NCBI GenBank assembly: GCA_036489235.1
Contig: DASXGC010000334.1
Location: 1,850 to 65,849 of the forward strand
DNA length: 64,000 nt
Direction: 5' to 3'
From: Vicinamibacterales bacterium
Lineage (GTDB): Bacteria > Acidobacteriota > Vicinamibacteria > Vicinamibacterales > CAVVIG01
The position numbers and the translations under genes are program-made. Shown piece after piece: positions 3,377 to 28,826 of this stretch. Each line of letters begins with the position of its first letter. Positions within the stretch are counted from its first letter, which is position 1. Under the pieces are notes generated by a model. The model did no database searches. It was not told the DNA's origin and was given only the letters and a program-made list of their open reading frames with translations.

Positions 3377-3392
3377 TGGTATACGCCTTGCT
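3377..3392 (+). promoter_or_regulatory. -24/-12 (sigma-54-type) promoter-like site upstream of the methyltransferase gene
   Basis: TGGTATA-CGCC-TTGCT with GG-N10-GC spacing. The GC is 13 nt before ATG 3405. A CGGAAAACGCG element lies about 76 bp upstream (3293-3312). Confidence 0.3.
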
Positions 3393-3404
3393 GCGCAACC
3401 AGGC

Positions 3405-7912: not shown

Positions 7913-8086
7913 GGCTGCCTCTTTCTCAGTCGCTCCCAGGGAGCGTCGCGTCAGGCCCGCGACGATATGTCGTGAGTCGATCGCAGAATATAGATCCGCG
8001 CGCGAGAGATCTCCAGCAAATCCGAGCCTCGCGCGGATACGGCGGAGACGAAGGCACGACGTGTACCAGGGCCGGGCTCGTGGAAG

Positions 8087-15581: not shown

Positions 15582-15901
15582 GAGTGTTCGAACATTTCGC
15601 CGAACAGCTCCTGGACGCGCTTTCGCGCGGTTCGGAGCGCCTTGCGGCCAAGCGGTGTGGCACGGTAGACACGGCGATTACGGCCGCCCGTTTGTGTCAC
15701 TTGAGACCGGAGATACCCCTGCTTCTCCATCCCGTGCAGGATGGGATAGAGGGTCCCGGCGCTGAGGCGATGGTCATGCCGCCCGAGCTCGTCGATCATC
15801 CATTGGCCAAAGATGGCGCTCTCGGCCGCGTGATGCAGGATGTGCATCCGGATCAGACCGTTGAACAGGCTCCGATCTTCAATCGCCTTCAGATGTCTCA
15901 T
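15578..15901 (-). CDS. PadR family transcriptional regulator
   Basis: 107 aa; the motif GTLYPILHGMEKQGYL..RRVYRATPLG is diagnostic of PadR. First gene of the padR-tolC-RND-MFP operon. Confidence 0.9.
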   Translation of the reverse strand: MRHLKAIEDRSLFNGLIRMHILHHAAESAIFGQWMIDELGRHDHRLSAGTLYPILHGMEKQGYLRSQVTQTGGRNRRVYRATPLGRKALRTARKRVQELFGEMFEHS

Positions 15902-16172
15902 TCCGATATCGCAATACGACTATAGGAGGATGGCTTGGACGTGTCAAAGCATTCATCCACTGTTCATCTACGAAACTGGAAGGTATAGGCGAGCGCTACC
16001 TGGCGACGCCGAAGAGCATCCCGACACCAGCCGTGATCGCCATTGCGAGTGCGCCCAGAACATGGCGCGCAAAGCGCGGCCAGGCCGCCCGATAACGCGA
16101 GCGCCAGCGGCGAGATTCCAAAGACAACGGGAATCAGGCGCTCAGTTGTCGCTCTGCGACACGTGGGGTCGG

Positions 16173-16188
16173 AGCAAGGAGCACGCCC
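16173..16188 (-). promoter_or_regulatory. -24/-12 promoter-like site pointing toward the padR-efflux operon
   Basis: On the minus strand it reads GGGCGTG-CTCC-TTGCT (GG-N10-GC, TTGCT). It lies about 72 bp from the motif at 16251-16267 and about 270 nt upstream of padR. Confidence 0.4.
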
Positions 16189-16250
16189 GCTTTTCGCTAA
16201 CGTGCTCAAGCAGGCGAGCCGTAACTACCCTCCCGCAGCGTTACAGTCGG

Positions 16251-16267
16251 TGGGGATTTTTCCGCGC
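16251..16267. promoter_or_regulatory. Candidate enhancer (UAS) motif shared by a divergent -24/-12 pair
   Basis: TGGGGATTTTTCCGCGC (minus strand: GCGCG-GAAAAATC-CCCA). Related GATTCC elements lie at 16275-16286 and 16307-16318. Confidence 0.35.
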
Positions 16268-16335
16268 TCTGGTGAAGGATTCCCCACGGCAGTGGTCTAC
16301 GGTGACGAGATTCCGCGGCTTTGATCAAATCTTGC

Positions 16336-16351
16336 GGGCATGCGTATTGCG
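16336..16351 (+). promoter_or_regulatory. -24/-12 (sigma-54-type) promoter-like site for the USP gene
   Basis: GGGCATG-CGTA-TTGCG with GG-N10-GC spacing. It overlaps the track's ATG at 16340, which argues for GTG 16364 as the true start. Confidence 0.5.
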
Positions 16352-16363
16352 AACCGGTCTCTG

Positions 16364-16873
16364 GTGATTGCACTCGAGCGGATTCTAGTCGCGACCGATT
16401 TCAGTGACGAGGCGAAGGCGGCATTGACCTGGGGACTCGAGTTCGCCGGTCGATTCGGTGCCGCCCTGCACGTACTGCACGTCTCCCAGAACTTCTGTAT
16501 CAATACGTTCGGGGCCGAAAACTGTGCCGCGATCGCTCCCGGCCGACAGCGACAAATAGAAGAGGACGCGCGCCGACATCTCGACGAGTGGCTCGACGCC
16601 GCCAACGCGACCGGCCCTTCGATGGTTCCGGCCATCCTCACATCCGCCGCACCCGCCCTGGCGATTATGGACTATGCCAGGGACCACGACATTGACTTGA
16701 TCGTGATGGGCACACAGGGACGTGACGCGTGGGCTCGTCTCGTCGTGGGTAGCGTCGCCGAACGGGTGGTGCGGCGGGCGCCGTGCCCAGTGCTCACGCT
16801 GAAGCGTTCCGGGCACGTTTTGCCTTCTGATGAACCACCAACCGCAGGCCAATGCAGCCGGAGGGCGAGTTGA
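16364..16873 (+). CDS. Universal stress protein (UspA family)
   Basis: ERILVATDFSDEAKAALTWGLEFA..LHVLHV; C-terminal ATP-binding motif DLIVMGTQGRDAWARLVVGSVAERVVRRAPCPVLTL. Alternative start at ATG 16340. Confidence 0.85.
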   Translation: MIALERILVATDFSDEAKAALTWGLEFAGRFGAALHVLHVSQNFCINTFGAENCAAIAPGRQRQIEEDARRHLDEWLDAANATGPSMVPAILTSAAPALAIMDYARDHDIDLIVMGTQGRDAWARLVVGSVAERVVRRAPCPVLTLKRSGHVLPSDEPPTAGQCSRRAS

Positions 16874-16966
16874 CGCCCGACATTTTCACGAAAGCCGCGC
16901 TCTTGTCCGAAACCACCCAGCGAACCGATCGTCGACACAATATGGGCGAACCGTCGTGAAGCGCGC

Positions 16967-18673
16967 GTGACGGCCCACTCCGCTCTCGATCCCTGGCTGC
17001 CGAAATCGATCCGGGTTCTTCGGCACTACGATCTGCCGACGTTTCGCGCCGATGTGATTGCCGGCGTCACCGTCGGCCTCGTCGCCCTGCCGCTCGCGAT
17101 GGCCTTCTCCATCGCCTCGGGCCTCACGCCACAGGCCGGCATCTACTGCGCCATCGTCACGGGCTTTCTGATTTCGGCGCTCGGTGGCTCACGGGTGCAG
17201 ATCGGCGGCCCGACGGGCGCGTTCGTCGTGGTCGTCGCGGGCATCGTCGCCAAGTACGGAGTGTCGGGCCTCTATGTCTGCACCATGATGGCCGGCGTCT
17301 TCCTCGTGCTGCTCGGGGCGACAGGCAGCGGCACGGTCGTCCGCTTCATCCCTCGGCCCGTCGTCGTCGGATTCACGAACGGCATTGCAGTGCTGATCGC
17401 CAGCACGCAGATTCGTGACTTCCTCGGAATGCGCATGACCGAAAATCCCGGCGAGTTCGCCGCGCGCATGGCGGCGATTGCGCGCCATCTGGATTCGATC
17501 ACGCCGGCAGCCACCGGCTTGGCGCTACTGACGTTGTTGCTGGTCGTTTCAGTCAACCGTTTCGTGAAGAGTGTTCCGGGCACGATCGTCGGCCTGGTTG
17601 GCGGAACGGCGATCGCCTGGCTCGGCCAGCTGCCGATCGACACCGTGGGTTCGCGCTTTGGCGGCGTGCCATCTGGCCTGCCTGCCTTCCATCTCCCGCC
17701 GTTCGAGCCGTCGCTGATGCTGACGCTGCTGGCGCCGGCGCTGACGGTCGCGATGCTCGGCGCGATCGAATCGCTGATGTCCGCCGTCGTGGCGGATCGT
17801 ATGAGCGGCGATCATCACAACTCGAATGTCGAGTTGATCGGTCAGGGGATCGCAAACATTGTCTCGCCGTTGTTCGGCGGACTTCCGGCAACGGGCGCGA
17901 TCGCGCGGACCGCCACCAACATTCGATCGGGCGCGCGCACGCCGGTCGCGGGGATGGTGCACTCCCTCACGCTGCTGATCATCCTCTTGGTCGGGGCGCC
18001 GCTCGCGAACCATGTGCCCATGGCCGTGCTGGCCGCGATCCTGTTCGTCGTCGCCGCCAACATGGGCGAGTGGCATGAAATTCCGGCGCTGATGAAGCAG
18101 ACGCGGGCCGACATCGCCGTGTGGGTGGTCACGTTCGGCTTGACCGTGTTCGCGGATCTGACCGTCGCGGTGGAGGTGGGCATGATCCTGGCCGCACTCC
18201 TCTACATCCGGCGCGTGTCGAACACGACGACAGTGTCTCGCGTCACCTCCGCATATCTGGATGAAGGTCGGGTGCACGTCCTGCATGACAAGCCCATTCC
18301 GGACTTCGTGACGATCATCCGGATTCATGGCCCGTTGCTCTTCGGCGCCACCGACAAGGTGCACCGGGTGATGGACGGACTGGACGGACTGCCACCGGTT
18401 GTCATCGTGCGCCTGCGGAACATGACCGCGATCGACGCCACCGGGCTCCGTGCGCTGGAAGATCTGAGCCTCAGGCTTCGCGAGTCGGGACGAGCTGCGA
18501 TCTTCTGTGGTGCGCGTGACCAGCCGCGTGCGGTAATGGCGCAGGCGGGTTTCGGACAGATCGTCGGCGTGGACAACGTCTGCGCCAATATCGACGCCGC
18601 GCTCGTGCGGGCCAACGCCATCATTGCTTCGATGCAACCTGCCCAGGTCTCTCCCGCGCTCAGGTCCGAGTAA
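16967..18673 (+). CDS. SulP family inorganic anion transporter with a C-terminal STAS domain
   Basis: 568 aa, N-terminus ..ADVIAGVTVGLVALPLAMAFSIASG; STAS-like C-terminus (VVIVRLRNMTAIDATGLRALEDL). Confidence 0.9.
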   Translation: MTAHSALDPWLPKSIRVLRHYDLPTFRADVIAGVTVGLVALPLAMAFSIASGLTPQAGIYCAIVTGFLISALGGSRVQIGGPTGAFVVVVAGIVAKYGVSGLYVCTMMAGVFLVLLGATGSGTVVRFIPRPVVVGFTNGIAVLIASTQIRDFLGMRMTENPGEFAARMAAIARHLDSITPAATGLALLTLLLVVSVNRFVKSVPGTIVGLVGGTAIAWLGQLPIDTVGSRFGGVPSGLPAFHLPPFEPSLMLTLLAPALTVAMLGAIESLMSAVVADRMSGDHHNSNVELIGQGIANIVSPLFGGLPATGAIARTATNIRSGARTPVAGMVHSLTLLIILLVGAPLANHVPMAVLAAILFVVAANMGEWHEIPALMKQTRADIAVWVVTFGLTVFADLTVAVEVGMILAALLYIRRVSNTTTVSRVTSAYLDEGRVHVLHDKPIPDFVTIIRIHGPLLFGATDKVHRVMDGLDGLPPVVIVRLRNMTAIDATGLRALEDLSLRLRESGRAAIFCGARDQPRAVMAQAGFGQIVGVDNVCANIDAALVRANAIIASMQPAQVSPALRSE

Positions 18674-18726
18674 GCGTCTGGAACTCCAGCGGTACCGCTC
18701 GCGACCAGATCCGGGCCACCGCAGGT

Positions 18727-19854
18727 TCAAGGATTCACCATCGCGGAGTCGTGCGCGTGAAGGAACCAGCGTTCGAGCAGAAGACGCCGAGTGAACCAGC
18801 GACTCCCCAGCAGCCACGGCAGTAGCCGATTTGCGACGGCTGATCTCATCGTCCGCGGGCGCAGTTGACGCATCCGCCGACTGCCAAATCGTTCTCGAAG
18901 CTGACGGACGTAGGGCTCGAGTCGATCCCGAGAGTAGTGTCCTCTCGCTGCCACCAGGGTCGATGCGGCGAGCAATCCGGACTCGATGGCCGGCCGGATG
19001 CCTTCCCCGCTTTCCGGATACGCAAGGCCGGCGGCGTCGCCCAGCAGCATGACGCCGTCGTCGATTGCCTGGCGGTGCGGCGATGCGGCAACCAGATAGG
19101 CGTGCCCGTGCCAGCGGCCGGACATCTCTTCGGGAGCCCTGCGCTGTCCGCGTAGAAACTCGACGAACTCCGCTGTTGCCTTGGGGAGCGCGCGACGGCC
19201 GAGAAGACCGAACCCGATGTTCAGATGCTGCGCTTTGCGGAAACACCAGCCGTAGCCGCTCAAGTCACGACAGAAATAGAGCTCCGGCACGCCGGACGCC
19301 GTCGGCCACGCTTTGGCGTCCCGGTCCTCCAGACGGAATTCCGTTTCCTGCGCGACGACCAGCGGCGGCGCGCCGTCGATCGTCGGGTTCAGCCAGCGTG
19401 CCACCGGGCAAAAATGTCCGCCGGCTCCGATGACCACGTCCGCCTTGATCGAATCGTTGACGATCCAGCAGGTGCCGTCGCGGACGATCGACGAGAGCAC
19501 CATGCCAAGCCGCAAATCAGCACCGGATCGCAGGAGCAGGTAATGATCGAACTCGCAGCGGCGGATGCCGAAGCTGACGGGTCGGTCGTACACGGTTTCC
19601 AGTGCCTTCGCCGAACCGATGACACCCGTGCGAAAGCCGGTGATCGGCTGGAAGGTGCGGCCGCGGCGATAATCGTCGCAGTCGAGCTCCAGATCGTCGA
19701 TGACCTGCGGCGTGATCCAGCCGGCACACACCTTGTCGCGTGGAAACACCGATCGATCCAGCACGATGACGCCCATGCCGGCCTGGTGCAGTCGTCGCGC
19801 GCACGAGGACCCTGCCGGACCACCACCGACGACGAGCACGTCACATCGTTCCAT
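18727..19854 (-). CDS. NAD(P)/FAD-dependent oxidoreductase, geranylgeranyl reductase family
   Basis: Start taken at MERCDVLVVGGGPAGSSCARRL (GxGxxG dinucleotide fold). The upstream part of track ORF 18727..20085 overlaps the preceding gene. There is a 14-nt overlap with the stop of the cfa-like gene. Confidence 0.8.
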   Translation of the reverse strand: MERCDVLVVGGGPAGSSCARRLHQAGMGVIVLDRSVFPRDKVCAGWITPQVIDDLELDCDDYRRGRTFQPITGFRTGVIGSAKALETVYDRPVSFGIRRCEFDHYLLLRSGADLRLGMVLSSIVRDGTCWIVNDSIKADVVIGAGGHFCPVARWLNPTIDGAPPLVVAQETEFRLEDRDAKAWPTASGVPELYFCRDLSGYGWCFRKAQHLNIGFGLLGRRALPKATAEFVEFLRGQRRAPEEMSGRWHGHAYLVAASPHRQAIDDGVMLLGDAAGLAYPESGEGIRPAIESGLLAASTLVAARGHYSRDRLEPYVRQLRERFGSRRMRQLRPRTMRSAVANRLLPWLLGSRWFTRRLLLERWFLHAHDSAMVNP

Positions 19855-21094
19855 GCGGCGCCCCACTGAACAGGTTCGGCCCGGCGGGTCGCGTCCAGGG
19901 AATCGCATTGCTCGCGCCAGGCGCGAACACCACTTGGAACAGCTGCATCGATCCCGTCGTGAATGCCGCTTCCGACCCGGCCAGATACAAGCGCCACGCG
20001 CGAACGAACGATTCGTCGAACATGTCTGTGACCTGATCTGCGGCCTCGTCAAACCGATGGTGCCAATGCTCCAGGGTCTTCGCATAGTGCAGCCGAAGAT
20101 TCTCGACGTCGAGCACCGACAAACCGCGGGGCTCGAGCACCTGCTCGAACACTTCGCGAAGCGCCGGCGGGTACGCGCCCGGAAAGATGCGCTTCCGGAT
20201 CCACCGATTCAGGAGCATCGGCTGATTCCGGCCGATGAAGTGCAAGAGGCCGCGTCCACGTGCGCCAAGACTGCGATCGATCACATCGCCCAGCGTCCGA
20301 AAGTCCGCGAGACCGACGTGTTCGAGCATGCCGACAGAGACAAACGCATCGTACCGGCCGCGAACGTTACGATAGTCGTCCTCAACGAACTCGATCCGTC
20401 CGGTGAGTCCTTCTTGCCTCGCGCGCTCGCGGGCGTAGGCAGTCTGCTCGGACGAAAGATTGAACGCTTTCACCGTGACGCCGTATCTCTTCGCCATGAA
20501 CAGCGCCAGCGATCCCCAGCCGCAACCCGCTTCAACGACGCGCTCGCCGGGCTGGAGATTGAGCTTGCGGCAAACGAGATCCATCTTGGCAATCTGCGCC
20601 TCTTCCAGCGTGCAGTCCGGGGTCGGAAAATACGCGCAGGTGTAGACCAGCTCCCGATCCAGCCAGAGCCTATAGAAGTCGTTGCCGAGGTCGTAGTGCT
20701 CGTGAACGTTTTCCTTGGCGGCAGATTCGTCGTTCGCCGAGGGCGACAGCCACCACGGGCGCGGCTTCGTGCCGAGCGCCCGGTAGGCGACTTCCAGCAG
20801 GCGCACGAGATCGCCGTGAATCTCGATCGCGCCGCTCATGTACGCCTCACCGAAGTTGAGTTCGGCATCCCAGACCCAACCGAAGAGCGCGCGGCGATTC
20901 TTGAACGCCACGGTGGTCATAGGCGAACCAGCGTCCGACGGCAACTCGAAGCCGTCCCACAACCGGAACCGAATGGGAGCGGATGAGACGGTCTGCTGAA
21001 TTCGCCTGAGCGCCCAGCGGTCGAGCGCCGTCGACCGAACGGCCGCCGTGTCACTCGAAAACGTCCGGTGTCCAAGGGCAGCACTCGCTCTCAT
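19841..21094 (-). CDS. Cyclopropane-fatty-acyl-phospholipid synthase family SAM-dependent methyltransferase
   Basis: CMAS-family motifs (VVEAGCGWGSLALFMAKRYGVTVKAFNLSSEQ). Start chosen at ATG 21094, preceded by GAGGGGAGGG. ATG 21199 lies upstream of the predicted promoter. Confidence 0.85.
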   Translation of the reverse strand: MRASAALGHRTFSSDTAAVRSTALDRWALRRIQQTVSSAPIRFRLWDGFELPSDAGSPMTTVAFKNRRALFGWVWDAELNFGEAYMSGAIEIHGDLVRLLEVAYRALGTKPRPWWLSPSANDESAAKENVHEHYDLGNDFYRLWLDRELVYTCAYFPTPDCTLEEAQIAKMDLVCRKLNLQPGERVVEAGCGWGSLALFMAKRYGVTVKAFNLSSEQTAYARERARQEGLTGRIEFVEDDYRNVRGRYDAFVSVGMLEHVGLADFRTLGDVIDRSLGARGRGLLHFIGRNQPMLLNRWIRKRIFPGAYPPALREVFEQVLEPRGLSVLDVENLRLHYAKTLEHWHHRFDEAADQVTDMFDESFVRAWRLYLAGSEAAFTTGSMQLFQVVFAPGASNAIPWTRPAGPNLFSGAPHGTM

Positions 21095-21182
21095 CGAACC
21101 CTCCCCTCTTGATCCTTCGGCGTCCTCTTCATCTGAACGTGTCTGGTCCGCGCATCGACGTCGGCCTGAACGAACATCCCGT

Positions 21183-21209
21183 TGCAGTTTGCCTGCCACT
21201 CGATTGCCA
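21183..21209 (-). promoter_or_regulatory. Two overlapping -24/-12 promoter-like sites for the cfa-like operon
   Basis: On the minus strand: TGGCAGG-CAAA-CTGCA (21183-21198) and TGGCAAT-CGAG-TGGCA (21194-21209). Both have GG-N10-GC spacing. Confidence 0.45.
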
Positions 21210-21274
21210 GCCGTGGCCCAGATCGTGGGATTTTAGGCTCGAGCGAGTTGAGCGGCCCGAAAAACCCCTGGGCA

Positions 21275-21292
21275 CCGCGCATTATTTCGCGG
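21275..21292. promoter_or_regulatory. Inverted repeat CCGCG-N8-CGCGG, candidate shared UAS
   Basis: CCGCG-CATTATTT-CGCGG. Its centre is about 87 bp from the minus-strand -24 (21197) and about 90 bp from the plus-strand -24 (21373). Confidence 0.4.
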
Positions 21293-21371
21293 CGCTCGAC
21301 CGTAGTTATGGCGTCAAATCATTCGAACCTTCTGACGACCGTCTCGGCAATGGTCTAGCCCATTGGTCTCC

Positions 21372-21387
21372 CGGCCTTCGGCTTGCA
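21372..21387 (+). promoter_or_regulatory. -24/-12 promoter-like site upstream of the USP-fragment ORF
   Basis: CGGCCTT-CGGC-TTGCA (GG-N10-GC, TTGCA), 39 nt before ATG 21426. Confidence 0.45.
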
Positions 21388-21425
21388 ACAGTCGACGTGG
21401 ACACTGCAAGAAGTGGTCGGTCGGC

Positions 21426-21854
21426 ATGACGTCAAGTCGTCGCGTGCTCTTCGCCTCGGATTTTTCAAAGGCATCACGGCGTGCGTTTACGACGGCCGTA
21501 GCGACGGCAAAAGCGTCGCGGTCGGGGCCCCGGCGTCGGGCCACGACCGGGTGGCGGCATTGGCGGCGTCTATCGACCGGGCGGCGCGGTGACGACGCCG
21601 AGGGTTATCGTGCGGTGAAGCCGGCGTACACGACCGAAGCGCTGTCCGAGAAGATCCACGGCACGGTCGTGCTCGAGTTCGTCGTGCAGGCCGACGGCCG
21701 GCCCGCCGACATTCGAGTCGCTCGTTCCCTGGATCGCGGATTGGACGAACAGGCGGTTCTTGCCGCACGCCAGTGGCGATTCGAACCTGGACGCCTCGCG
21801 GGTCGGCCGGTCGATGTCCTTGTCACGCTGGTCCTCGACTTCAATATTCGATGA
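21426..21854 (+). pseudogene. Chimeric or decayed ORF: a USP N-terminal fragment fused to a 5'-truncated, frameshifted TonB C-terminal domain
   Basis: The first ~30 aa (RRVLFASDFSKASRRAFTTAVATAKA) match USP N-termini. The TonB linker GGIGGVYRPGGAVTTPRVIVR is readable only in another frame (21502-21615, ending TGA 21616). The TonB_C domain VKPAYTTEALSEKIHGTVVLEFVV..ARQWRFEPG resumes in the ORF frame. A 1-nt loss in cgg(g)tg at about 21613-21617 explains the shift. No TM or Pro-rich N-terminus is present. Confidence 0.6.
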
Positions 21855-21862
21855 ATTGCGGA

Positions 21863-21880
21863 AGGGGCGGTCCTCTTTTT
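21863..21880 (+). terminator. Weak intrinsic terminator candidate
   Basis: AGGGG-CGGT-CCTCT stem (one G-U pair) followed by TTTT, 9 nt after the stop at 21854. Confidence 0.25.
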
Positions 21881-21905
21881 CGGGTCAGCGAAAGCGATAA
21901 GGCGG

Positions 21906-21933
21906 GCGTGCGCGTCACGCGTGGCGCGCACGC
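21906..21933. other. 28-nt near-perfect GC-rich palindrome between convergent genes
   Basis: GCGTGCGCG-T-CACGCGTG-G-CGCGCACGC. The only non-complementary pair is T/G. Confidence 0.6.
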
Positions 21934-22105
21934 AACCTTGCTTCCGTGTGTTCACGGTTCGGAAACGACGCGACCGCCACGGCAGCCGCCGATACGACGA
22001 CGATTGGTGGAAGGAACAACGAGATGAGAAAGATCCATTCAGCCGTGACGGCGACGCGAGGACGATTCCACGGCGGGCCGGCAAATTCCCGGCGCAAGCG
22101 CCCGG

Positions 22106-23473
22106 TCATGACGGCGTCGGGCGTTCCAGCTTGAACTTCTCTATCCGGTAGCGAATCTGGTCGCGATTGAGCCCGAGCAGCGTGGCGGCCTTCGTCTGGT
22201 TCCAGCCGCTTCGCTCCAGCGCCTGCACGACCAGCGAACGCTCGAGTTGTTCGAGGTCGACGCCGGTCGGCGGCAGGGGCACTCCCTCGGTGAGGCGCGA
22301 GCCCTCGCCGCCCACGGTGAAGTCCGCCGCGGTCAGTTCGGGGCCGTCGGCCAGCAGCATCGCGCGTTCGACGACGTTTCGGAGTTCGCGGATGTTTCCC
22401 GGCCACCCATACGTCTGAAGCCGCTTCATCGCGTCGTCCGACACCGAGCGGATGCGCTTGCGAAATTCCGTGTTGTAGCCGTCGATAAAGTAGTGCACCA
22501 GCGCGGGTATGTCGTCGGCCCTGGCGCGCAGCGGCGGAAGTACGATCGGCAGGACATTCAAGCGGTAATAGAGGTCCTCGCGAAAGCGTCCCTTCTTCAC
22601 TTCGTCTTCGAGCAGACGATTGGTCGCAGCGACCACTCGGACATCGACTTTGATGTCGGTCACGCCACCGACTCGCTTGAACGTCTTCTCTTCGAGGAAT
22701 CGCAGCATCTTGGCTTGTAGGCCGGGCGCCATCTCTCCGATCTCGTCGAGGAACACTGTGCCACCGTCAGCCGACTCGAGGAGGCCGCGCTTCTGCTGAC
22801 GCGCATCTGTGAAGGCGCCCCGCTCGTGGCCGAAGAGCTCGCTCTCGAGAATCTGCTCGGGGATCGCCGAGCAGGTGATATTCATGAAGGGCCGCGACGC
22901 ACGGTCGCTGGCGTAGTGCAGCACCTTGGCCGCCAGGTCCTTGCCGGTGCCGCTCTCGCCTGTCAGCAGCACGGTGGACGAGGGGCTGGACGCCACCTTC
23001 TGCAGGAGCGCCTTGGCGTTCGTGATCGCCTGGCTGTGCCCGACGATGCGATCGACGCTATAAGGCCGCGCCTGACTGGCGCGGAGCGTGCGCACTTCCC
23101 GGCGCAGTCGCGTGGTTTCGAGCGCTTTCTCGACCAGGAGCGCAATTTCATCGAGGTTGAACGGCTTATTGGCGTAGTGATACGCGCCCGCCTTCATCGC
23201 TTCGACCGCGGTCTCTACGCTCGAGAATCCGGTCAGCAGAATGACCAGCGTCTCTGCATCCGCAGCCTTGATCTTCCTGAGCACGTCGAGGCCGTCGCCA
23301 TCGGGCAGCTTGTAATCGAGGAGTACGAGGTCGACGCCTTCGGCGTGGCGCTCGAGCGCCGCGGCAGCAGTGTCGGCTTCAACCACCCGGTAGCCCATCG
23401 CAGAAAGGCGCTCGCTCAGCGACCAGCGAATCAGCTGCTCGTCGTCGACGACGAGGATCGTCGGTGTTGGCAT
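22106..23473 (-). CDS. Sigma-54-dependent Fis-family response regulator (NtrC-type enhancer-binding protein)
   Basis: Receiver domain ([21 protein letters not shown]), AAA+ domain ([18 protein letters not shown] variant of GAFTGA), Fis-type HTH ([23 protein letters not shown]). Confidence 0.9.
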
Positions 23474-23479
23474 GCGTGC

Positions 23480-23902
23480 CTAGTATATGCGTCCGTTCAG
23501 GGCGCGTTCGACCGCCGCGGCCAGGCCGGTCAGGTCGAAAGGCTTCGACACGATGCCCGAACCGAGTGCCGTCGCCTGCTGTGCGATCTCGGGCGTCATG
23601 AACGCGCTCATTATGATGACCGGCAGGGCCGGCGCCGCGGCGCGAATCCGCGACAGCACACCCAGATTTTGTGCGTCCGGCATGTCGAGCAGTACGAGAT
23701 CGCAACCAGTCCCCAGCGCCAGCGCGGACTGCGCATCGGCCGCTTCGATGACGTCAAATCCCCGCGTGCGCAAGGTTTCGCTCACCGCCCACCGGACCAG
23801 CCATTCGTCATCGACCACGAGCACGCGCGCTGCGAATTGTTGCCCGGAGTCCGCGGGATTTCCCGGCGTCTCCAGTCGCATACTCGTGTTTTCGCCCAGC
23901 AT
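23480..23902 (-). CDS. Single-domain response regulator (receiver only)
   Basis: ARVLVVDDEWLVRW..DLVLLDMPD..VIIMSAF..SKPFD. Its stop lies 6 nt upstream of the bEBP gene's start codon. Confidence 0.8.
   Translation of the reverse strand: MLGENTSMRLETPGNPADSGQQFAARVLVVDDEWLVRWAVSETLRTRGFDVIEAADAQSALALGTGCDLVLLDMPDAQNLGVLSRIRAAAPALPVIIMSAFMTPEIAQQATALGSGIVSKPFDLTGLAAAVERALNGRIY
23740..23876. repeat. Copy 1 of an imperfect ~135-bp direct repeat (5' part of the receiver gene)
   Basis: Aligns by eye with 24207-24341 at roughly three-quarters identity, e.g. GCTGCGAATTgTTgCCC..TCCGCgGGATTTCCCGG..CCAGT. Confidence 0.6.
23851..23866. promoter_or_regulatory. CGCG-N8 AT-core motif (candidate UAS) inside the receiver gene's 5' end
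   Basis: CCGCG-GGATTTCC-CGG, about 105 bp upstream of the -24 element at 23964. Confidence 0.3.
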
Positions 23903-23962
23903 TTCACTTCCCCAAACCTGCTAATCAAGAAGCCGGCCATGCATGGGGCGCGACGTGCGAAT

Positions 23963-23978
23963 CTGGCATCGCACTTGC
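23963..23978 (+). promoter_or_regulatory. -24/-12 (sigma-54-type) promoter-like site for the 64-aa membrane ORF
   Basis: TGGCATC-GCAC-TTGCG, the best consensus match in the window (TGGCA..TTGC, GG-N10-GC). It lies 33 nt before ATG 24011. Confidence 0.6.
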
Positions 23979-24010
23979 GGGTGTGCCGGCAGGAACGTCA
24001 AGGAGGGGTT

Positions 24011-24205
24011 ATGTCACACACTCTCACGGCAAATGTGCTCGGCTTCTTCGAGCATCTCGCGGCGATCGTCGTCGGATTCGTGCTGATGGTGATCGGGTTG
24101 GGCCTGGGCGTCACGATGATCATGCTGCCGCTCGGCCTCGTCATCGGTTTCATCGGCCTCGCGATGTTCGTCGCGGGTATGTGCGTCCGATTCGACTGGA
24201 TCTGA
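24011..24205 (+). CDS. Small membrane protein (64 aa, two predicted TM helices)
   Basis: AGGAGG sits 4 nt before the ATG. Sequence: MSHTLTANVLGFFEHLAAIVVGFVLMVIGLGLGVTMIMLPLGLVIGFIGLAMFVAGMCVRFDWI. It is preceded by a -24/-12 site and sits antisense within the kinase-receiver-bEBP gene string. Confidence 0.5.
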   Translation: MSHTLTANVLGFFEHLAAIVVGFVLMVIGLGLGVTMIMLPLGLVIGFIGLAMFVAGMCVRFDWI

Positions 24206-24206
24206 A

Positions 24207-24341
24207 ACCGCGTCGATCTCGTCGACCCCCGCGCGCAGGGTTCGTCCACTGTCCACAGGACGAGCCCTTTCGTGGGCGATCACGACGACGCCCGCTGCGA
24301 ATTCTTACCCAGCGTCCGCAGGATTTCCCGGTATCCCAGTG
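24207..24341 (-). pseudogene. Degenerate copy of the receiver gene's 5' end (repeat copy 2)
   Basis: Reads PGNPADAG*EFAAGVVVIAHERARPV.. against ETPGNPADSGQQFAARVLVVDDEWLVRW in the intact gene. It has an in-frame stop and has lost the DD acidic pocket. Confidence 0.55.
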
Positions 24342-24417
24342 GCAGAGTCGCACCCTGCCACTTCACGATCCCAACCAGCAGAATCACGAAACCGGCATCG
24401 GGAGAAACGACTCGAGA

Positions 24418-24810
24418 TCAGTGAATGGGGAGCGCCTCGGTGACGAGGTCAGCCATCTGATGGACTTCGAACGGCTTGTTGACCACGTGACGCGCGCCCA
24501 GTGCCAGCGCCTGCTCGATCATCTCCGCAGTGCTGTATGCCGTCATCATGATGACCGGAACGGATGGCGCATCGTGCCGAATGGAGGCGAGGAGTTGAAG
24601 GTCGTTGGAATCCGGCAGATGGTAGTCCAGCACCACGGCATCCGGCCTGGGGTGACCGTCCACGAAGGCGCTCCGCGCCGCGGTCGCGTCGACCGCCTCG
24701 GCAACAAGGTATCCCTTGGCCTCGAGTACCTCGCGCAACGCCCAGCGAATGAGCAGTTCGTCGTCGACAACGAGGACCAGGAGTCGTGGATCCGAACTTT
24801 TCAACGCCAA
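24418..24810 (-). CDS. Single-domain response regulator (receiver only)
   Basis: LLVLVVDDELLIRW..AVVLDYHLPDSND..VIMMTAY..NKPFE. TTG start with GGAG upstream. Confidence 0.8.
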   Translation of the reverse strand: MALKSSDPRLLVLVVDDELLIRWALREVLEAKGYLVAEAVDATAARSAFVDGHPRPDAVVLDYHLPDSNDLQLLASIRHDAPSVPVIMMTAYSTAEMIEQALALGARHVVNKPFEVHQMADLVTEALPIH

Positions 24811-24894
24811 TGGGAAAAATCTCCGATCGGCGGAGCAAAAACGACGTTATTCGGTCGCATGAACCGAGGGCGATCCAAGAAGCGGGCCGTACCG

Positions 24895-26355
24895 CTAGGG
24901 TTGAGCCTTAAGCGGCAGCTGAAGCAGGACCGTCGTGCCGCCGCTGTCCGGGCACAGCAATGCCATTGAACCGTTTTGGGCTTCCATAAACCGCCTGGCG
25001 GTGGAGAGTCCAAGTCCGGTACCGCGCGACTTGGTCGTGAAAAACGGGGTGAAGAGCTTTTCGCGCACCTCTGGGAGAATGCCCGGCCCTGAATCGACGA
25101 CCGCAATCGTGCCGCAGTCCCCAGAGGACCCGAGCTCGATCCGGACGCCGCCGCTCCCCTTCATCGCCTGCACGGCGTTCAAGAGGAGGTTCTGCAGGAT
25201 CAACTTCAGCAGCTCCGCATCTGCCGCCACAGGCGCAGACGTGCCCGTCACGGCGAATCCCACGCCGCGTGCCGTGGGATCCTGTCGCACCAGCTCAATC
25301 GCCGACAGCACAATTGGCTGGAGCTCGATCGACGCGATCTTCGGCCGCGGCGGTCGCGCGAACAGCAGCAAATCCTTCATCAGCTCGTTCAGCGCATCGA
25401 TCCGGGCGACGATCTCCTTGATCACCTCGGCGTCGCGGCTGCCCGCCGGCAGCCGTCCGCCGATGATCTGCACGGCGCCTCGGATCCCGGTCAGCGGATT
25501 CTTGACCTCATGTGCGACCACGGCGGCCATCTCGCCCAGTCGCTTCAACGCCTCCTGTTCACGTAACTGCGTCTCGAGCCGTACCCGCTCGGTCAGGTCG
25601 TGCAGGATGCCGGTGAACTTCTTCTCGCCGTCAATGGTCATTTCTCCGACCGAGAGCTGCAGCGGAAACGTCGACCCGTCCTTCCGGCGTCCCGTCACCT
25701 CCCGGCCGATGCCGATGATGTGCCGTTCACCGGTCGAAAGATGCCGCTTCAAGTACTGATCGTGTTCGGAACGGTACGGCTCCGGCATCAGCATGTTCAC
25801 GTTCTGTCCGACGACTTCCGCCGCGGAGAACCCGAAGAGCCGCGTGGCGGCGACATTCAACGATTCGACGCGACCCAGGTGATCGATCACGATGATCGCA
25901 TCCACCGCCGAGTCCACGACCGATCGATACCGTTCTTCGCTCGCATCGAACGCCGCGTGGATTCGCCTGGATTCGGTGATATCGCGGGCAATCGCCGACG
26001 CGCCGAGAATGCGTCCAGTGACGTCGAGAATGGGCGAGACAGTCAACGAGACCGTCAGCAATCGGCCGGCGCGAGTGCGCCGGACCGTCTCGTGCGAGGG
26101 GACTCGCCGGCCCGCCCGAATTTCGTCGAGGATCCGCCGAAACTCGCGCTGGTGCTCCTCGGGGATGATCAGGCTGATCGATCGCCCGATGGCGTCGGCG
26201 GCGCTGTAGCCGTACATCCGCTCCGCGGCCGCGTTCCAGCTGACGATCGTACCGTCCAGCGCCTTGCCGATGATCGCGTCATCCGATGACTCGACGATGG
26301 CGCGCAGCAGGCCGCCCGGCTCGTCGTCGGGCAGGAAACCGGGAGGAGAAGGCAT
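24895..26355 (-). CDS. Cytoplasmic PAS-PAS histidine kinase with a FixL-type haem-binding PAS domain
   Basis: The second PAS, GQNVNMLMPEPYRSEHDQYLKRHLSTGERHIIGIGREVTGRRKDGSTFPLQLSVGEM, closely resembles the haem-PAS of rhizobial FixL as I recall it (..ILMPEP.R..HD.Y..RY..T....IIGI.R.V.G.RKDG.TFPM.L..GEM). Candidate proximal His198 is at codon 25762-25764. HisKA motif AHEVKNPLTGI and an HATPase_c domain are present. No TM segment. Confidence 0.85.
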   Translation of the reverse strand: MPSPPGFLPDDEPGGLLRAIVESSDDAIIGKALDGTIVSWNAAAERMYGYSAADAIGRSISLIIPEEHQREFRRILDEIRAGRRVPSHETVRRTRAGRLLTVSLTVSPILDVTGRILGASAIARDITESRRIHAAFDASEERYRSVVDSAVDAIIVIDHLGRVESLNVAATRLFGFSAAEVVGQNVNMLMPEPYRSEHDQYLKRHLSTGERHIIGIGREVTGRRKDGSTFPLQLSVGEMTIDGEKKFTGILHDLTERVRLETQLREQEALKRLGEMAAVVAHEVKNPLTGIRGAVQIIGGRLPAGSRDAEVIKEIVARIDALNELMKDLLLFARPPRPKIASIELQPIVLSAIELVRQDPTARGVGFAVTGTSAPVAADAELLKLILQNLLLNAVQAMKGSGGVRIELGSSGDCGTIAVVDSGPGILPEVREKLFTPFFTTKSRGTGLGLSTARRFMEAQNGSMALLCPDSGGTTVLLQLPLKAQP

Positions 26356-26405
26356 CGGGCGTCCCTATGATAGCGGGGGTTTCATCGGATTGGCCGCCGC
26401 CGGAG

Positions 26406-26444
26406 GCGTGCGAAATACTCCGCAGGACCGCGGGAAATTCCCAC
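26406..26444. promoter_or_regulatory. Two adjacent AT-core motifs (candidate UAS) upstream of the tandem USP promoter
   Basis: GCGTGCGAAATACTCCGCAGG (26406-26426) and CCGCG-GGAAATTC-CCAC (26428-44, containing the palindrome GGGAA-A-TTCCC). They lie about 71-91 bp upstream of the -24 GG at 26507. Confidence 0.35.
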
Positions 26445-26505
26445 TTGCTGTTTCGGCGCGGTCCCTGGCTGCCTTGGGCATTCGCTCTGCCCGTGCCCAA
26501 AAGGA

Positions 26506-26521
26506 CGGCACGCAGAATGCT
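26506..26521 (+). promoter_or_regulatory. -24/-12 (sigma-54-type) promoter-like site for the tandem USP genes
   Basis: CGGCACG-CAGA-ATGCT (GG-N10-GC). Candidate starts are ATG 26532 (near-leaderless) and ATG 26544 (GGAGGA at 26534-39). Confidence 0.5.
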
Positions 26522-26543
26522 CCGTCGGTCCATGGAGGACAAG

Positions 26544-27023
26544 ATGATTGCGGTGAAAGACATTATGGTGGCGACCGACTTCGATCCAGCCTCTGAGGCG
26601 GCGCTCGCCTACGGTCGGACGCTCGCGCGAGCGTTCGGCGCCACGCTGCACCTGTTCCACGCGTCGGAGAACTTCTTCCTGCGCCCGTCCGCGATAGACC
26701 CGGCCGCCTTGAAGGCGAGCACCCAGCGGCGTCTCGAAGAGCGTCTGACGGACGTCGAACGCCGTAACCGGAGTGCCTGCGCTGCCCTGGTCACGTCCGA
26801 TCAGCCGGCCGACGCGATTATCGAGTACGCGAAGAGTGCCCAGATCGATCTGATCGTCATGGGCACTCACGGACGCACCGGCATTTCGCACGTGCTCATG
26901 GGAAGCGTTGCCGAGCATGTTGTACGCAGCGCCCCCTGCCCGGTCCTGACCGTGCGGCATCCGGAGCGCACATTCCTGGTGTCCGACGAGGCACCGGCGA
27001 CAAGGGAAACGAGGCCATCATGA
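26544..27023 (+). CDS. Universal stress protein
   Basis: MIAVKDIMVATDFDPASEAALAYGRTLA..LHLFHA; DLIVMGTHGRTGISHVLMGSVAEHVVRSAPCPVLTV. The upstream part of track ORF 26286.. is not USP-like. Confidence 0.85.
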   Translation: MIAVKDIMVATDFDPASEAALAYGRTLARAFGATLHLFHASENFFLRPSAIDPAALKASTQRRLEERLTDVERRNRSACAALVTSDQPADAIIEYAKSAQIDLIVMGTHGRTGISHVLMGSVAEHVVRSAPCPVLTVRHPERTFLVSDEAPATRETRPS

Positions 27024-27517
27024 CTCCGCTCAGGAAGATTCTCGTTGCGACGGACTTCAGCGAACCGTCGGAAGCGGCGCTGGCTTACGGCCGCGAGCTC
27101 GCGCGCACGTTCGGCGCCAAGCTGACGCTGCTGCACATCGTCGATGACGTCACCGCGCACACATTCGCCACCGACGGTGCCATGCTGATCGATGCCGAGG
27201 CACAGAGTGTGGCGGACGCTGCCGCTCACCGGCGACTGGAATCGTCGCTCTCCGAGGACGATCGCCGCGAACTCCAGGCGACGACAGCCCTGGTCATGTC
27301 GATGAAACCAGCGACCGCCATCGTGTCGTACGCGCAGGAGTCAGGCGTCGACTTGATTGTGATGGGCACGCACGGTCGTGGCGGCGTCGCGCACTTCCTG
27401 ATGGGCAGCGTCGCCGAGCAGGTGGTGCGAACGGCGCCCGCACCGGTGTTGACGATCCGCTGCCCCGGGCGTGACCTGCTGCGGCCCGACGCGTTGGTCG
27501 CGGTGGCGAAAGCGTGA
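27020..27517 (+). CDS. Universal stress protein
   Basis: KILVATDFSEPSEAALAYGRELA..LLHIV; DLIVMGTHGRGGVAHFLMGSVAEQVVRTAPAPVLTI. ATGA overlap with the preceding USP gene. Confidence 0.9.
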   Translation: MTPLRKILVATDFSEPSEAALAYGRELARTFGAKLTLLHIVDDVTAHTFATDGAMLIDAEAQSVADAAAHRRLESSLSEDDRRELQATTALVMSMKPATAIVSYAQESGVDLIVMGTHGRGGVAHFLMGSVAEQVVRTAPAPVLTIRCPGRDLLRPDALVAVAKA

Positions 27518-27518
27518 T

Positions 27519-27699
27519 GTGATCGAAACCAGCCTGCCGCTGCCCGCAGGCGACGAAGTGCCGGATCACGTGGTGCTCCGTGACGGCTCCGTCGCCCGGC
27601 TGCGTTTTGCGCGCGAGCGTGTCGGATGATCCGTCGTTCAATTCACTTGTCGTGTTCGGACTCGACGGCATTTTCGTCGAGGTGCTGGCGGACGATTAA
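27519..27699 (+). pseudogene. Short remnants resembling a GNAT / NDP-forming acyl-CoA synthetase (Pat-like) gene
   Basis: Frame 1: VIETSLPLPAGDEVPDHVVLRDGSVARLRFARERVG* (GNAT-start-like LRDGS..LR). Frame 2: ..SLVVFGLDGIFVEVLADD* (matches the FGLGGIFVEVL.D motif of the ATP-grasp_5 domain). Each is far too short to be functional. Confidence 0.35.
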
Positions 27700-27914
27700 G
27701 CTCGAATTGCGCCGCTGGGGCGGCGATACATCCCGTCCGCCGAGTGCTGCAGAAGGCCTTCGGCTTCCAGCTGGTTCAGGACGCGGACGGCGGCTGCCCG
27801 ATCAACGTCGAGCAGCCGCGCAACCTGCTGAAGCGTCAGCGTAAGCCCCGGCAGCGAAACGAACTCTTCCCGCAGACTTTCGCAGGCGCCATCGACATAG
27901 AGTGTGGTGTTCAC
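27696..27914 (-). CDS. Small winged-helix-like DNA-binding protein (72 aa)
   Basis: GTG start. ..LPGLTLTLQQVARLLDVDRAAAVRVLNQLEAEGLLQHSADGMYRR. The longer track ORF (to 28076) has an implausible Ser/Cys/Arg-rich N-terminus. Confidence 0.45.
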   Translation of the reverse strand: MNTTLYVDGACESLREEFVSLPGLTLTLQQVARLLDVDRAAAVRVLNQLEAEGLLQHSADGMYRRPSGAIRA

Positions 27915-27921
27915 AGTGCCC

Positions 27922-28065
27922 TCACCAATCCCCACGCGCCAACCATGGTACGCCGTGGACTTCCGGACCGCCGGCGAACTGATACACGCGATCGGCCGAT
28001 GCCAACAGCCCCGAACCGAGCCCGACGACGAGCAGCGCGACGCTGACGAACGTTCGGGTGCGCAT
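27922..28065 (-). CDS. Small signal-peptide-bearing peptide (47 aa)
   Basis: GGAGGA sits just upstream of the ATG. MRTRTFVSVALLVVGLGSGLLASA | DRVYQFAGGPEVHGVPWLARGDW. Third-position GC is higher than in the overlapping frame. Confidence 0.4.
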   Translation of the reverse strand: MRTRTFVSVALLVVGLGSGLLASADRVYQFAGGPEVHGVPWLARGDW

Positions 28066-28109
28066 ATCTCCTCCATCCGATCGACTTGATACCGTTCCCG
28101 CCTCGCCGC

Positions 28110-28571
28110 TCACATCTCCGTGCCGCGCGGCAGCACCGGATGCATTACGCCGCAACCGTCGACGCCTTCAACGGCTGGCGTCCACGCCGGCTTGCCGTCG
28201 CTGGTGCGCAGCGTCAGGGTCCTGCCGTCCTTGGTGATGGTGCGCACGATGAACGACTTGTTGCCGTCGATGAACGCCTTCACGCCGACCATCGTGACCT
28301 CGTCTCCGGCGTTGAACCAGAAGTTCTGGTCGCCGATGTACTTTGCGGGGCCGAGATGCACGTTCACCATGCTCGACGTAGTCGAGAAATCAAGGTGCAC
28401 ACCGACATTGCTGTCCGCGGCCGGCATGGCGACGAGCGTGACGATCTTGCCCGAGACGGTCTCTTCTGCCGACCGGTCGTAGTCGAAGCCGCCGACCTGC
28501 GCGAACATCACCGCCGAAAGACCGAGCCACAGACTGCAACCAATCGCCGGGGCCACGTAGTCACGAGTCAT
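28110..28571 (-). CDS. Exported protein of unknown function (beta-rich, OB-fold-like pattern)
   Basis: AAGGAGG sits 5 nt before ATG 28571. Signal/TM segment (APAIGCSLWLGLSAVMFAQV), then VSGKIVTLV..VGVHLDF..VNVHLGPAKYIGDQNFWFNAGDEVTMVG...TLTLRTSDGKPAW. Confidence 0.65.
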   Translation of the reverse strand: MTRDYVAPAIGCSLWLGLSAVMFAQVGGFDYDRSAEETVSGKIVTLVAMPAADSNVGVHLDFSTTSSMVNVHLGPAKYIGDQNFWFNAGDEVTMVGVKAFIDGNKSFIVRTITKDGRTLTLRTSDGKPAWTPAVEGVDGCGVMHPVLPRGTEM

Positions 28572-28583
28572 GCCGTCCTCCTT

Positions 28584-28604
28584 GTGACTGCTGTTGGCAG
28601 TCAC
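28584..28604 (-). other. Perfect 8-bp inverted repeat at the predicted transcription start / 5' UTR
   Basis: GTGACTGC-TGTTG-GCAGTCAC, between the -12 element (28609-10) and the Shine-Dalgarno of the 28571 gene. Confidence 0.5.
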
Positions 28605-28607
28605 AGG

Positions 28608-28623
28608 GGCAAAGGCAATGCCG
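28608..28623 (-). promoter_or_regulatory. -24/-12 (sigma-54-type) promoter-like site for the 28571-27696 operon
   Basis: On the minus strand it reads CGGCATT-GCCT-TTGCC (GG-N10-GC). Confidence 0.5.
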
Positions 28624-28703
28624 AGTCGATCGAGGCGTTTTGCTGATGTTTCTGAAGAAATCGGCGAGATAGGCGACCGCGCGGTCCGAGTTTTTCGGCA
28701 GGG

Positions 28704-28721
28704 GCGCGAAATTTTCCGGGG
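28704..28721. promoter_or_regulatory. CGCG-N8 AT-core motif, candidate UAS shared by a divergent -24/-12 pair
   Basis: GCGCG-AAATTTTC-CGGGG. Its centre is about 90 bp from the minus-strand -24 (28622) and about 100 bp from the plus-strand -24 (28812). Confidence 0.4.
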
Positions 28722-28810
28722 CCCGGACGGTTACCAGAAATACGTCAAAGGTGGCCGATCGCGGTGTTCGCCCTGTATGGGCCGTCGAACTATCCAGGCA
28801 TCATCAGGGA

Positions 28811-28826
28811 CGGCTCAACTCTTGCT
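28811..28826 (+). promoter_or_regulatory. -24/-12 promoter-like site for the DHOD-like gene
   Basis: CGGCTCA-ACTC-TTGCT (GG-N10-GC, TTGCT), 25 nt before ATG 28851. Confidence 0.45.

Follow-up and report, generated by a model that had tools for sequence, protein, structure and literature searches.

A predicted low-oxygen sigma-54 regulon with paired palindromic enhancers in a Vicinamibacterales genome

In a 64,000-nucleotide contig stretch from a Vicinamibacterales bacterium, referred to here as the window, the region from 16.2 to 29.9 kb (the island) contains genes for universal stress proteins (USPs) and other small proteins that lie behind sequences resembling the -24/-12 promoters used by sigma-54. 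A gene for a bacterial enhancer-binding protein (bEBP), the type of activator on which such promoters depend, stands in their midst. A preliminary description of the region listed eight promoter-like sites with a recurring upstream element and likened the gene set to the hypoxia regulons of other phyla. The locus therefore raises the question of whether these genes form one regulon and, if they do, which protein activates it and which signal it obeys.

The answer preferred here, with a probability of about 0.72, is that the island is a compact low-oxygen sigma-54 regulon run by one two-component system. The sites, the enhancer modules, the association between the two, their conservation and the domain identities of the regulators were established computationally; from these we infer that the activator binds the module, that sigma-54 is used at the predicted promoters, that the signal is oxygen, and in which direction the genes respond. 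In the proposed circuit, a cytoplasmic histidine kinase with a FixL-type haem-PAS domain would sense oxygen and, by analogy with FixL, would be active when its haem is in the deoxy form, so that the island would be switched on under hypoxia. The kinase would phosphorylate the NtrC-type activator (22106-23473), and two single-domain receivers, REC1 and REC2, probably serve as competing phosphate acceptors. Once activated, the protein would bind a module of two palindromes (CGCGGRAWWTYCCGCG) about 95-140 bp upstream of the predicted transcription starts, oligomerise, and use ATP to open the sigma-54 promoters through DNA looping. Five modules would serve six convincing and two weak promoters, three of the modules acting in both directions. 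The predicted outputs are three USPs, a SulP transporter, a cyclopropane-fatty-acid (CFA) synthase with a flavoprotein, a tiny membrane protein, a 153-aa protein with a small helix-turn-helix (HTH) protein, and a DHOD-like flavoenzyme.

Gene starts in the window were re-called from Pfam, NCBIfam and ribosome-binding sites (RBSs), which divides it into 8.6 kb of intergenic and 55.6 kb of coding DNA. Promoter sites were scored with an approximate matrix built from the sigma-54 consensus of Barrios et al. (TGGCACG-N4-TTGCW), not with a curated model. For comparison, 80 loci carrying relatives of the activator were fetched, and 81 bEBPs are encoded in them. Seven loci (L002-L008) are clearly orthologous, with 63-79% identity to the activator; beyond these, identity is at most 52%. 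All seven come from metagenome-assembled genomes labelled Vicinamibacterales, Acidobacteria or Acidobacteriota.

Promoter-like sites and the two-site module

The eight 16-mers and five upstream elements of the preliminary description are all present in the window as written. Seven of the sites lie exactly where they had been placed, and one, given as beginning at 23963, actually occupies 23964-23979. The -24 and -12 elements had been called good throughout. This holds for six sites (10.4-12.6 bits by the approximate matrix), which fit the extended consensus YTGGCACG-N4-TTGCW with a GG-to-GC distance of exactly 10 nt, but the remaining two are weak. With start codons re-called, seven of the eight are oriented towards a gene start, as had been proposed for all of them, while the eighth, on the minus strand at 16173, has no clear target.

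The predicted promoter at 28811-28826(+) scores 12.6 bits and belongs to the DHOD-like gene (28851-29900), and that at 21183-21198(-), with 12.3 bits, to the genes for the CFA synthase and a flavoprotein of the geranylgeranyl-reductase family (RBS GGGAGGG, ATG at 21094). The site at 23964-23979(+) scores 12.1 bits and precedes the gene for the 64-aa membrane protein (RBS AAGGAGG, ATG at 24011), and the one at 26506-26521(+) scores 11.7 bits and precedes two USP genes (RBS GGAGGA, ATG at 26544). The last two of the six are predicted to serve USP1 and the SulP transporter (16336-16351(+), 10.9 bits; genes at 16364-18673, assigned by the Pfam families USP and SulP/STAS) and, in the opposite direction, the genes for the 153-aa protein and the small HTH protein (28608-28623(-), 10.4 bits; RBS AAGGAGG, ATG at 28571). 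The two weak sigma-54-like sites are 16173-16188(-), with 9.3 bits, which lies 106 bp from module 1, and 21372-21387(+), with 8.1 bits, ahead of an open reading frame (ORF) at 21426-21854 that combines a USP-like N-terminus with a TonB_C domain.

The placement of the matches departs from expectation. Comparison with shuffled and coding DNA had been named in advance as a check, and within the window all seven matrix matches of at least 10 bits are intergenic, against 1.76 in shuffled intergenic DNA (p about 0.007), while coding DNA contains none. Six of the seven fall between 16 and 29 kb.

Upstream of the sites, the preliminary description had recognised a single CGCG-N8 element. Such an element is indeed present at all five loci, but each represents one half of a module that consists of two 16-bp palindromes (CGCGGRAWWTYCCGCG) spaced 20-21 bp centre to centre. 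A de novo motif search, which had been suggested as a further check, rediscovered the palindrome. A self-written expectation-maximisation program, given the sequences that precede the candidate promoters, converged from many seeds on the 16-bp palindrome CGCGGAAWWTTCCGCG, reaching a log-likelihood of 99.9 on 35 non-redundant upstream regions versus 22-29 on shuffled input, and it returned the identical palindrome when no palindrome constraint was imposed. When a matrix trained on L002-L008 only was used to scan the window for pairs with spacings of 15-35, the five best pairs (28685, 26409, 21255/6, 16251 and 23831) were exactly the five loci named before, all at spacing 20 or 21; for this reason, the elements are regarded as halves of a bipartite module. 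In a scan of spacings from 12 to 40, pairs of at least 20 bits occurred at 20 or 21 and nowhere else. Two-site modules with that spacing number five, versus 0.04 expected in random sequence of the same first-order composition. A spacing of 20-21 bp, equal to two helical turns, places both palindromes on the same face of the helix.

Putative module 5 (28685-28720; 24.7 bits, spacing 20) is the best pair in the window and lies between divergent promoters, and putative module 1 (16251-16286; 20.3 bits, spacing 20) likewise separates two divergent sites, its centre being 93 bp from the predicted start of USP1. For putative module 4 (26409-26444; 23.6 bits, spacing 20), the distance from the centre to the predicted start of the tandem USP genes is 105 bp, and the kinase start codon lies 54 bp away on the other side. 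Putative module 2 occupies 21256-21291 (20.4-20.8 bits, spacing 20-21), and putative module 3 (23831-23867; 20.3 bits, spacing 21) is located within the first codons of REC2. The earlier observation that one element sits between two divergent sites at three loci stands, and three of the five modules would serve both directions.

Modules and promoter-like sites are closely associated. Of the 23 sigma-54 matches of at least 8 bits, nine are directed away from a module whose centre is 80-150 bp distant, where 0.13 would be expected (p about 4e-15); these nine are the eight sites already described and one overlapping alternative. In the window and the orthologous loci, the distances from module centre to predicted start cluster at 105-107 and 115-117 bp, and a period of 10-10.5 bp in these distances (Rayleigh p 0.001-0.005) suggests that the action of the modules depends on the face of the helix. 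The order of module, interval of about 105-117 bp, -24/-12 site and gene is repeated in the orthologous loci; the earlier proposal had staked itself on conservation in orthologous intergenic regions. Strong -24/-12 matches in these loci also directly precede genes for USPs, receivers, the activator and TonB_C proteins, often as divergent pairs, and sites equivalent to those of the island stand before USP genes in six other genomes.

Several results weigh against a sigma-54 regulon. The bare pattern GGC-N8-TGC occurs 71 times in the window (65.9 +/- 7.8 in shuffles), shuffles give more matrix matches of 10 bits or better than the whole window does (11.9 versus 7), and 11 stretches agree with the single enhancer consensus when up to three mismatches are allowed (9.6 expected, with six of the 11 in promoter regions), so that none of the three shows an excess. 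The caveat in the preliminary description that such matches arise by chance was therefore justified: a bare match is uninformative, and tests of position and pairing were used because there is no global enrichment. In addition, the sigma-54 matrix is approximate, two of the eight sites are weak, both the phasing test and the distance limits of 80-150 bp were chosen post hoc, and no rpoN gene was seen among the window genes scanned (domain scans of the larger ORFs). Finally, USP1 starts at a GTG codon at 16364 (MIALERILVATDFS, like other USP N-termini), only 12 nt past the 16-mer, and would need either an almost leaderless GTG-start mRNA or another promoter.

These points would be accommodated if the -24/-12 matches were fortuitous or non-functional, the genes being transcribed from sigma-70-type promoters and the palindromes being ordinary activator or repressor sites. 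The absence of global enrichment, the failure to see rpoN and the scant leader room at USP1 all fit this view. It is nevertheless considered very improbable, because the strong matches are all intergenic and correctly oriented, nine of the 23 lie beside modules, equivalent sites recur before USP genes in the six other genomes, and the island itself encodes a sigma-54-dependent AAA+ activator. Moreover, the only good site returned by a sigma-70 scan of 15 kb is that of padR.

The short distance at USP1 has parallels. A start codon 12-13 nt past the 16-mer is seen in four cases, namely 16336-16366 and 3377-3407 in the window, 3612-3642 in L005 and 2189-2220 in L003. Transcripts from these predicted sites would have practically no leader, an unusual feature among sigma-54 promoters. 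The start-codon offsets after 465 matrix matches in all loci show only a weak bump at 12-14 nt, which is not conclusive. One of the four cases involves the strongest sigma-54-like site of the whole window, 3377-3392(+) (TGGTATACGCCTTGCT, 14.7 bits), which precedes the ATG of a class-I SAM methyltransferase gene (3405-4196) by 12 nt. This site is not part of the island and lacks an enhancer module, so that another activator probably acts on it.

The activator, its kinase and the signal

The preliminary description had placed a bEBP in the middle of the region (22106-23473, minus strand), and Pfam bears this out. The protein has a receiver (Response_reg), a sigma-54 AAA+ domain (Sigma54_activat, E 1e-66; AAA_lid_14) and a C-terminal HTH_8 domain, and is hence of the NtrC type. 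Its translation includes the motifs GESGTGK, FLDEIGE and GAFTDA, the last of which is a frequent variant that 25 of the 81 bEBPs in the fetched loci share. With a matrix built from the ten sites of the window, 12 palindrome pairs were found in 135 kb around the orthologous activators (0.89 per 10 kb), in contrast to 4 pairs in 1.1 Mb around 73 other bEBPs (0.04 per 10 kb, about 22-fold rarer). The recognition region of the HTH domain, NRDQ(I/V)RYR(I/L)EKF, does not vary among the members of the orthogroup, and other bEBPs have a different sequence there. On these comparisons, the activator is the presumed ligand of the modules.

The link between activator and modules rests on co-occurrence, and the palindrome pairs might be bound by another factor, such as the small HTH protein or a regulator encoded elsewhere, with the bEBP acting on other sites or on only some of these. 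The small HTH protein belongs to the conserved gene set of the window, L006 and L008, and the strong module before the start codon of the L006 activator resembles an operator more than an enhancer. Binding by such a factor is judged improbable, given that the modules accompany the orthologous bEBP from genome to genome and seldom occur near other bEBPs, and that the recognition region is invariant within the orthogroup. The arrangement also speaks for the bEBP: the standard layout for this class of activator has two dyads in helical phase with a -24/-12 site and about 100-140 bp upstream of it (PMC11841059).

The L006 module just mentioned, at 9900-10001, is the strongest of all (31-33 bits) and lies between a weak sigma-54-like site and the activator start codon. 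In L004 (1-146), a module and a 12.9-bit site stand ahead of the activator gene. Both arrangements suggest that the activator regulates its own synthesis in these orthologues. Two activator copies, 66-68% identical to the query, occur close together in L006 (10001-12886) and in L007 (5139-9391), indicating a lineage-specific duplication of the regulator.

In the window, no -24/-12 site faces the kinase between its start codon and module 4 (26356-26444). NtrC modulates its own operon at glnAp1, and by analogy the activator of the island might repress or modulate the promoter of its own operon through module 4. An additional enhancer-like pair of 19 bits lies just past the activator stop codon (22057-22094, spacing 19-22), and a single extra enhancer-like site is found at 24317-24332. 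The pair was considered as a sixth module and set aside as an orphan, there being no sigma-54-like site within 200 bp. A more distant locus, L010 from a member of the Blastocatellia, encodes an activator with 48% identity and the recognition helix RDQLRYR; there, a sigma-54 site of 15.8 bits and an ORF of 645 aa, the C-terminal part of which looks CBS-like by eye, are preceded by three phased enhancer-like sites (7829-7924). The enhancer motif may therefore extend beyond the Vicinamibacterales.

The sensor histidine kinase (24895-26355, minus strand) contains a first PAS domain (PAS-A), a FixL-type haem-PAS domain at residues of about 140-266, and a HisKA-HATPase core (Pfam PAS twice, HisKA and HATPase_c). 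Its sensor half matches the FixL structure 8js5 in the PDB (E 5e-43), and its transmitter half is closest to ZraS/AtoS. Residues 140-266 align with the haem domain of Bradyrhizobium FixL (1dp6, E 4e-40), and the alignment retains the proximal His200 (RSEHDQY), Arg206, Ile215, Ile216 and Arg220, the last in the HIIGIGR loop; the residue numbers are those of BjFixL. The presence, in the same operon as the activator, of a kinase with a FixL-type haem-PAS domain in which haem and oxygen ligands are conserved further supports the hypoxia-like character that had been claimed from the gene set. In L003, L005 and L008, too, equivalent haem-PAS kinases are encoded beside the orthologous activator.

REC1 (24418-24810, minus strand) was assigned to Response_reg by tblastn and by the gene call on the metagenome contig L001, and has the DD, D, T and K residues in its translation. 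REC2 (23480-23902, minus strand) is a Pfam Response_reg protein (E 6e-15). The receiver domains of the activator, REC1 and REC2 share 44-47% mutual identity, and the two stand-alone receivers would compete for phosphate.

Beside the orthologous activators in L002, L006 and L007, no FixL-type haem-PAS kinase was detected, which counts against oxygen as a general signal; the oxygen link may thus be specific to certain lineages. Promoters, enhancer and activator could be real and yet respond to something other than oxygen limitation, be it nitric oxide (NO), carbon monoxide (CO), redox state or another PAS ligand, or the kinase could be active in its oxygenated form; the island would then be a general or nitrosative stress regulon. 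In favour of this view, the first PAS domain has no assigned ligand, the activators of the three loci adjoin kinases in which no FixL-type haem-PAS domain was detected, and the regulon comprises generic stress proteins (USP, BON, OsmC). FixL-type haem also binds CO and NO. This alternative is unlikely in view of the conservation of Arg220 and of the FG-loop residues that give FixL its response to oxygen. USP-rich regulons, furthermore, are typical of hypoxia responses (PMC11841059).

Genes of the island and its borders

The favoured low-oxygen regulon begins with USP1 (16364-16873, plus strand) and the SulP/STAS transporter (16967-18673, plus strand), both assigned by Pfam. They are followed on the minus strand by the flavoprotein (18727-19776; NCBIfam GG-red-SF) and the CFA synthase (19841-21094; Pfam CMAS). 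USP2 (26544-27023) and USP3 (27020-27517), both on the plus strand, match the Usp family with E values of 1e-32 and 3e-34. The small HTH protein is encoded on the minus strand within 27696-28076, and its homologues are found behind sigma-54 sites in L006 (by tblastn) and L008 (by eye). The adjacent 153-aa protein (28110-28571, minus strand) has no assigned family. The DHOD-like protein (28851-29900, plus strand) reaches 405 bits with NCBIfam PRK07565 against a cut-off of 303, and its orthologue in L006 lies downstream of a module and a sigma-54 site.

The ORF at 21426-21854(+) had been described as a USP fragment. Its N-terminus is USP-like (MTSSRRVLFASDFS..., a sub-threshold Usp match) but is joined to a TonB_C domain (E 1e-17). 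Separate genes for a USP and a TonB_C protein stand in succession in L002, and for this reason the ORF of the window may be the remnant of a deletion and fusion. A full TonB_C gene with an 11.8-bit site and a module is present in L007. The genes behind module and sigma-54 units in the orthologous loci encode single or tandem USPs, a protein with three BON domains, OsmC, phosphoenolpyruvate synthase, a P-type cation ATPase, a full-length TonB and the small HTH protein; this is a stress or persistence set.

The 64-aa protein (24011-24205, plus strand) is predicted to have two membrane helices. Its gene has an AAGGAGG RBS and was also called on L001, and no useful homologue of the ORF was found in the fetched loci. 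The gene lies on the plus strand within the 515-bp gap (23903-24417) between the minus-strand genes of REC1 and REC2. Its induced transcription would run head-on to read-through into REC2 and the activator gene and could act as feedback.

At the left border, an operon for PadR (15578-15901, minus strand) and a TolC-like outer-membrane protein (14163-15581, minus strand), with RND and MFP genes further downstream, had been included in the regulon by way of the weak site at 16173. This membership is doubtful. A sigma-70-like promoter, TTGACA-17-TATAGT, lies directly before padR at 15947-15919(-) with 11 of 12 consensus matches and is the one good site reported by the sigma-70 scan, and the 270 bp that follow the 16173 site contain no convincing ORF. 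Efflux was left out of the regulon on these two grounds, and the promoter sequence speaks for transcription of the efflux operon separately from that of the island. Hydrophobic peptide stretches occur in two frames in the interval from the 16173 site to padR (15964-16172, minus strand), and a frameshifted gene for a small membrane protein may be concealed there; no homologue of this region was found in the fetched loci.

In the window, the composition profile lacks the signature of a foreign island, and an Rfam scan of 15-31 kb matched no RNA family.

Significance and comparison with known systems

Acidobacteriota are among the most abundant bacteria in soil, and to our knowledge their gene regulation is little characterised. 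If the favoured reading is true, the locus names a complete circuit of sensor, activator, DNA code and about a dozen target genes, and we know of no earlier bEBP regulon and enhancer code defined in the Vicinamibacterales lineage. Oxygen levels in soil aggregates fluctuate often, and such a circuit would be a possible means of surviving these changes. With the bipartite matrix, the complete regulon can now be predicted for any genome of the Vicinamibacterales.

The type of regulon, with its two-component system, bEBP and sigma-54 promoters, is familiar, and no new principle of regulation is revealed. What is new is the pairing of sensor and output, together with the enhancer code. At the domain level, a FixL sensor module appears to have been wired to an NtrB/AtoS-like transmitter and a sigma-54 output. 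A broader proposal, held tentatively and at somewhat less than even odds, is that in the Vicinamibacterales, a widespread soil lineage with few cultured members, a FixL-type haem sensor has exchanged its partner FixJ for a sigma-54 activator of the NtrC type, giving a portable hypoxia island with an undescribed bipartite enhancer and some near-leaderless mRNAs. Limited literature searches found neither a published regulon in Acidobacteria that combines USPs with sigma-54 nor a FixL-like kinase with an NtrC-type regulator, and the literature on RpoN and enhancer-binding proteins yielded nothing on Acidobacteria. The Desulfovibrio sigma-54 regulome paper and the sigma-54 survey of Francke make no mention of USPs, nor does the latter mention Acidobacteria.

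The FixL-FixJ(-FixK, FixT) systems of rhizobia and Caulobacter share the sensor layout of PAS-A followed by a haem-PAS-B domain. The single-domain receiver FixT belongs to these systems, and the island likewise has single-domain receivers. In FixL-FixJ systems, the partner of the kinase is the LuxR-type FixJ, whereas in the island it would be an NtrC-type sigma-54 activator with two bare receivers; the transmitter core is AtoS/ZraS-like, and targets would be reached through -24/-12 promoters, not FixK boxes. Assignment to FixLJ was rejected, because the partner is not FixJ and the kinase scores 271 bits with the FixL equivalog model (NCBIfam sens_FixL_Rhizob) against a cut-off of 850, its best full-length model being AtoS.

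Mycobacterial DosR/DevR is a LuxR-type regulator that works with sigma-70-type promoters and haem-GAF kinases and involves neither sigma-54 nor a bEBP. Like this system and the lxa locus of Burkholderia cenocepacia, the island has a clustered, USP-rich gene set that is presumably induced by hypoxia, as well as a haem-sensor kinase. Both are cited as USP-rich hypoxia regulons in PMC11841059. The island was nevertheless rejected as a DosR system, since its regulator is a sigma-54 bEBP and its kinase a PAS protein, only the USP-rich content being similar.

In architecture, the island resembles enteric NtrB-NtrC acting at glnAp2, where a phosphorylated REC-AAA+-HTH protein bound to paired dyads at about -100 to -140 loops onto a -24/-12 promoter. 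Activator sites may also overlap a divergent sigma-70 promoter in the NtrC system, and in the island 54 bp separate module 4 from the start codon of the kinase. The two differ in signal, which is nitrogen for NtrB-NtrC, in regulon content and in DNA motif. The NtrC motif is TGCACC-N5-GGTGCA.

The nearest published circuit is NmpRSTU of Myxococcus xanthus, in which a haem-kinase pathway ends in the NtrC-like NmpR and a sigma-54 regulon with a USP, as established experimentally (PMC11841059). The claim that a hypoxia-type gene set is here wired through sigma-54 is supported, but such wiring is not unprecedented. The regulon of NmpR has been proposed to serve oxygen limitation, and NmpR binds two GCGCA-N5-TGCGC boxes, mostly 14-15 nt apart, upstream of sigma-54 promoters (McAllister et al. 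2025, PMC11841059). Both soil bacteria would thus use a haem-based oxygen-sensing kinase, an NtrC-like activator, two dyads before sigma-54 promoters and a single-domain USP, these features being predicted in the case of the island. The routes differ. In Myxococcus, the globin-coupled NmpU acts via the hybrid kinase NmpS, whereas the island has a FixL-type haem-PAS kinase beside the activator and two stand-alone receivers; domain scans found neither a hybrid kinase nor a globin sensor in its operon. The GCGCA-N5-TGCGC box is replaced by the de novo motif CGCGGRAWWTYCCGCG, spaced 20-21 bp centre to centre. The Nmp regulon includes cbb3 oxidase, hemN and CBS proteins, in contrast to the USPs, CFA synthase, DHOD-like protein and small envelope proteins of the island. 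Myxococcus, which belongs to a different phylum, thus arrives at a sigma-54 output as well, but from another kind of haem sensor.

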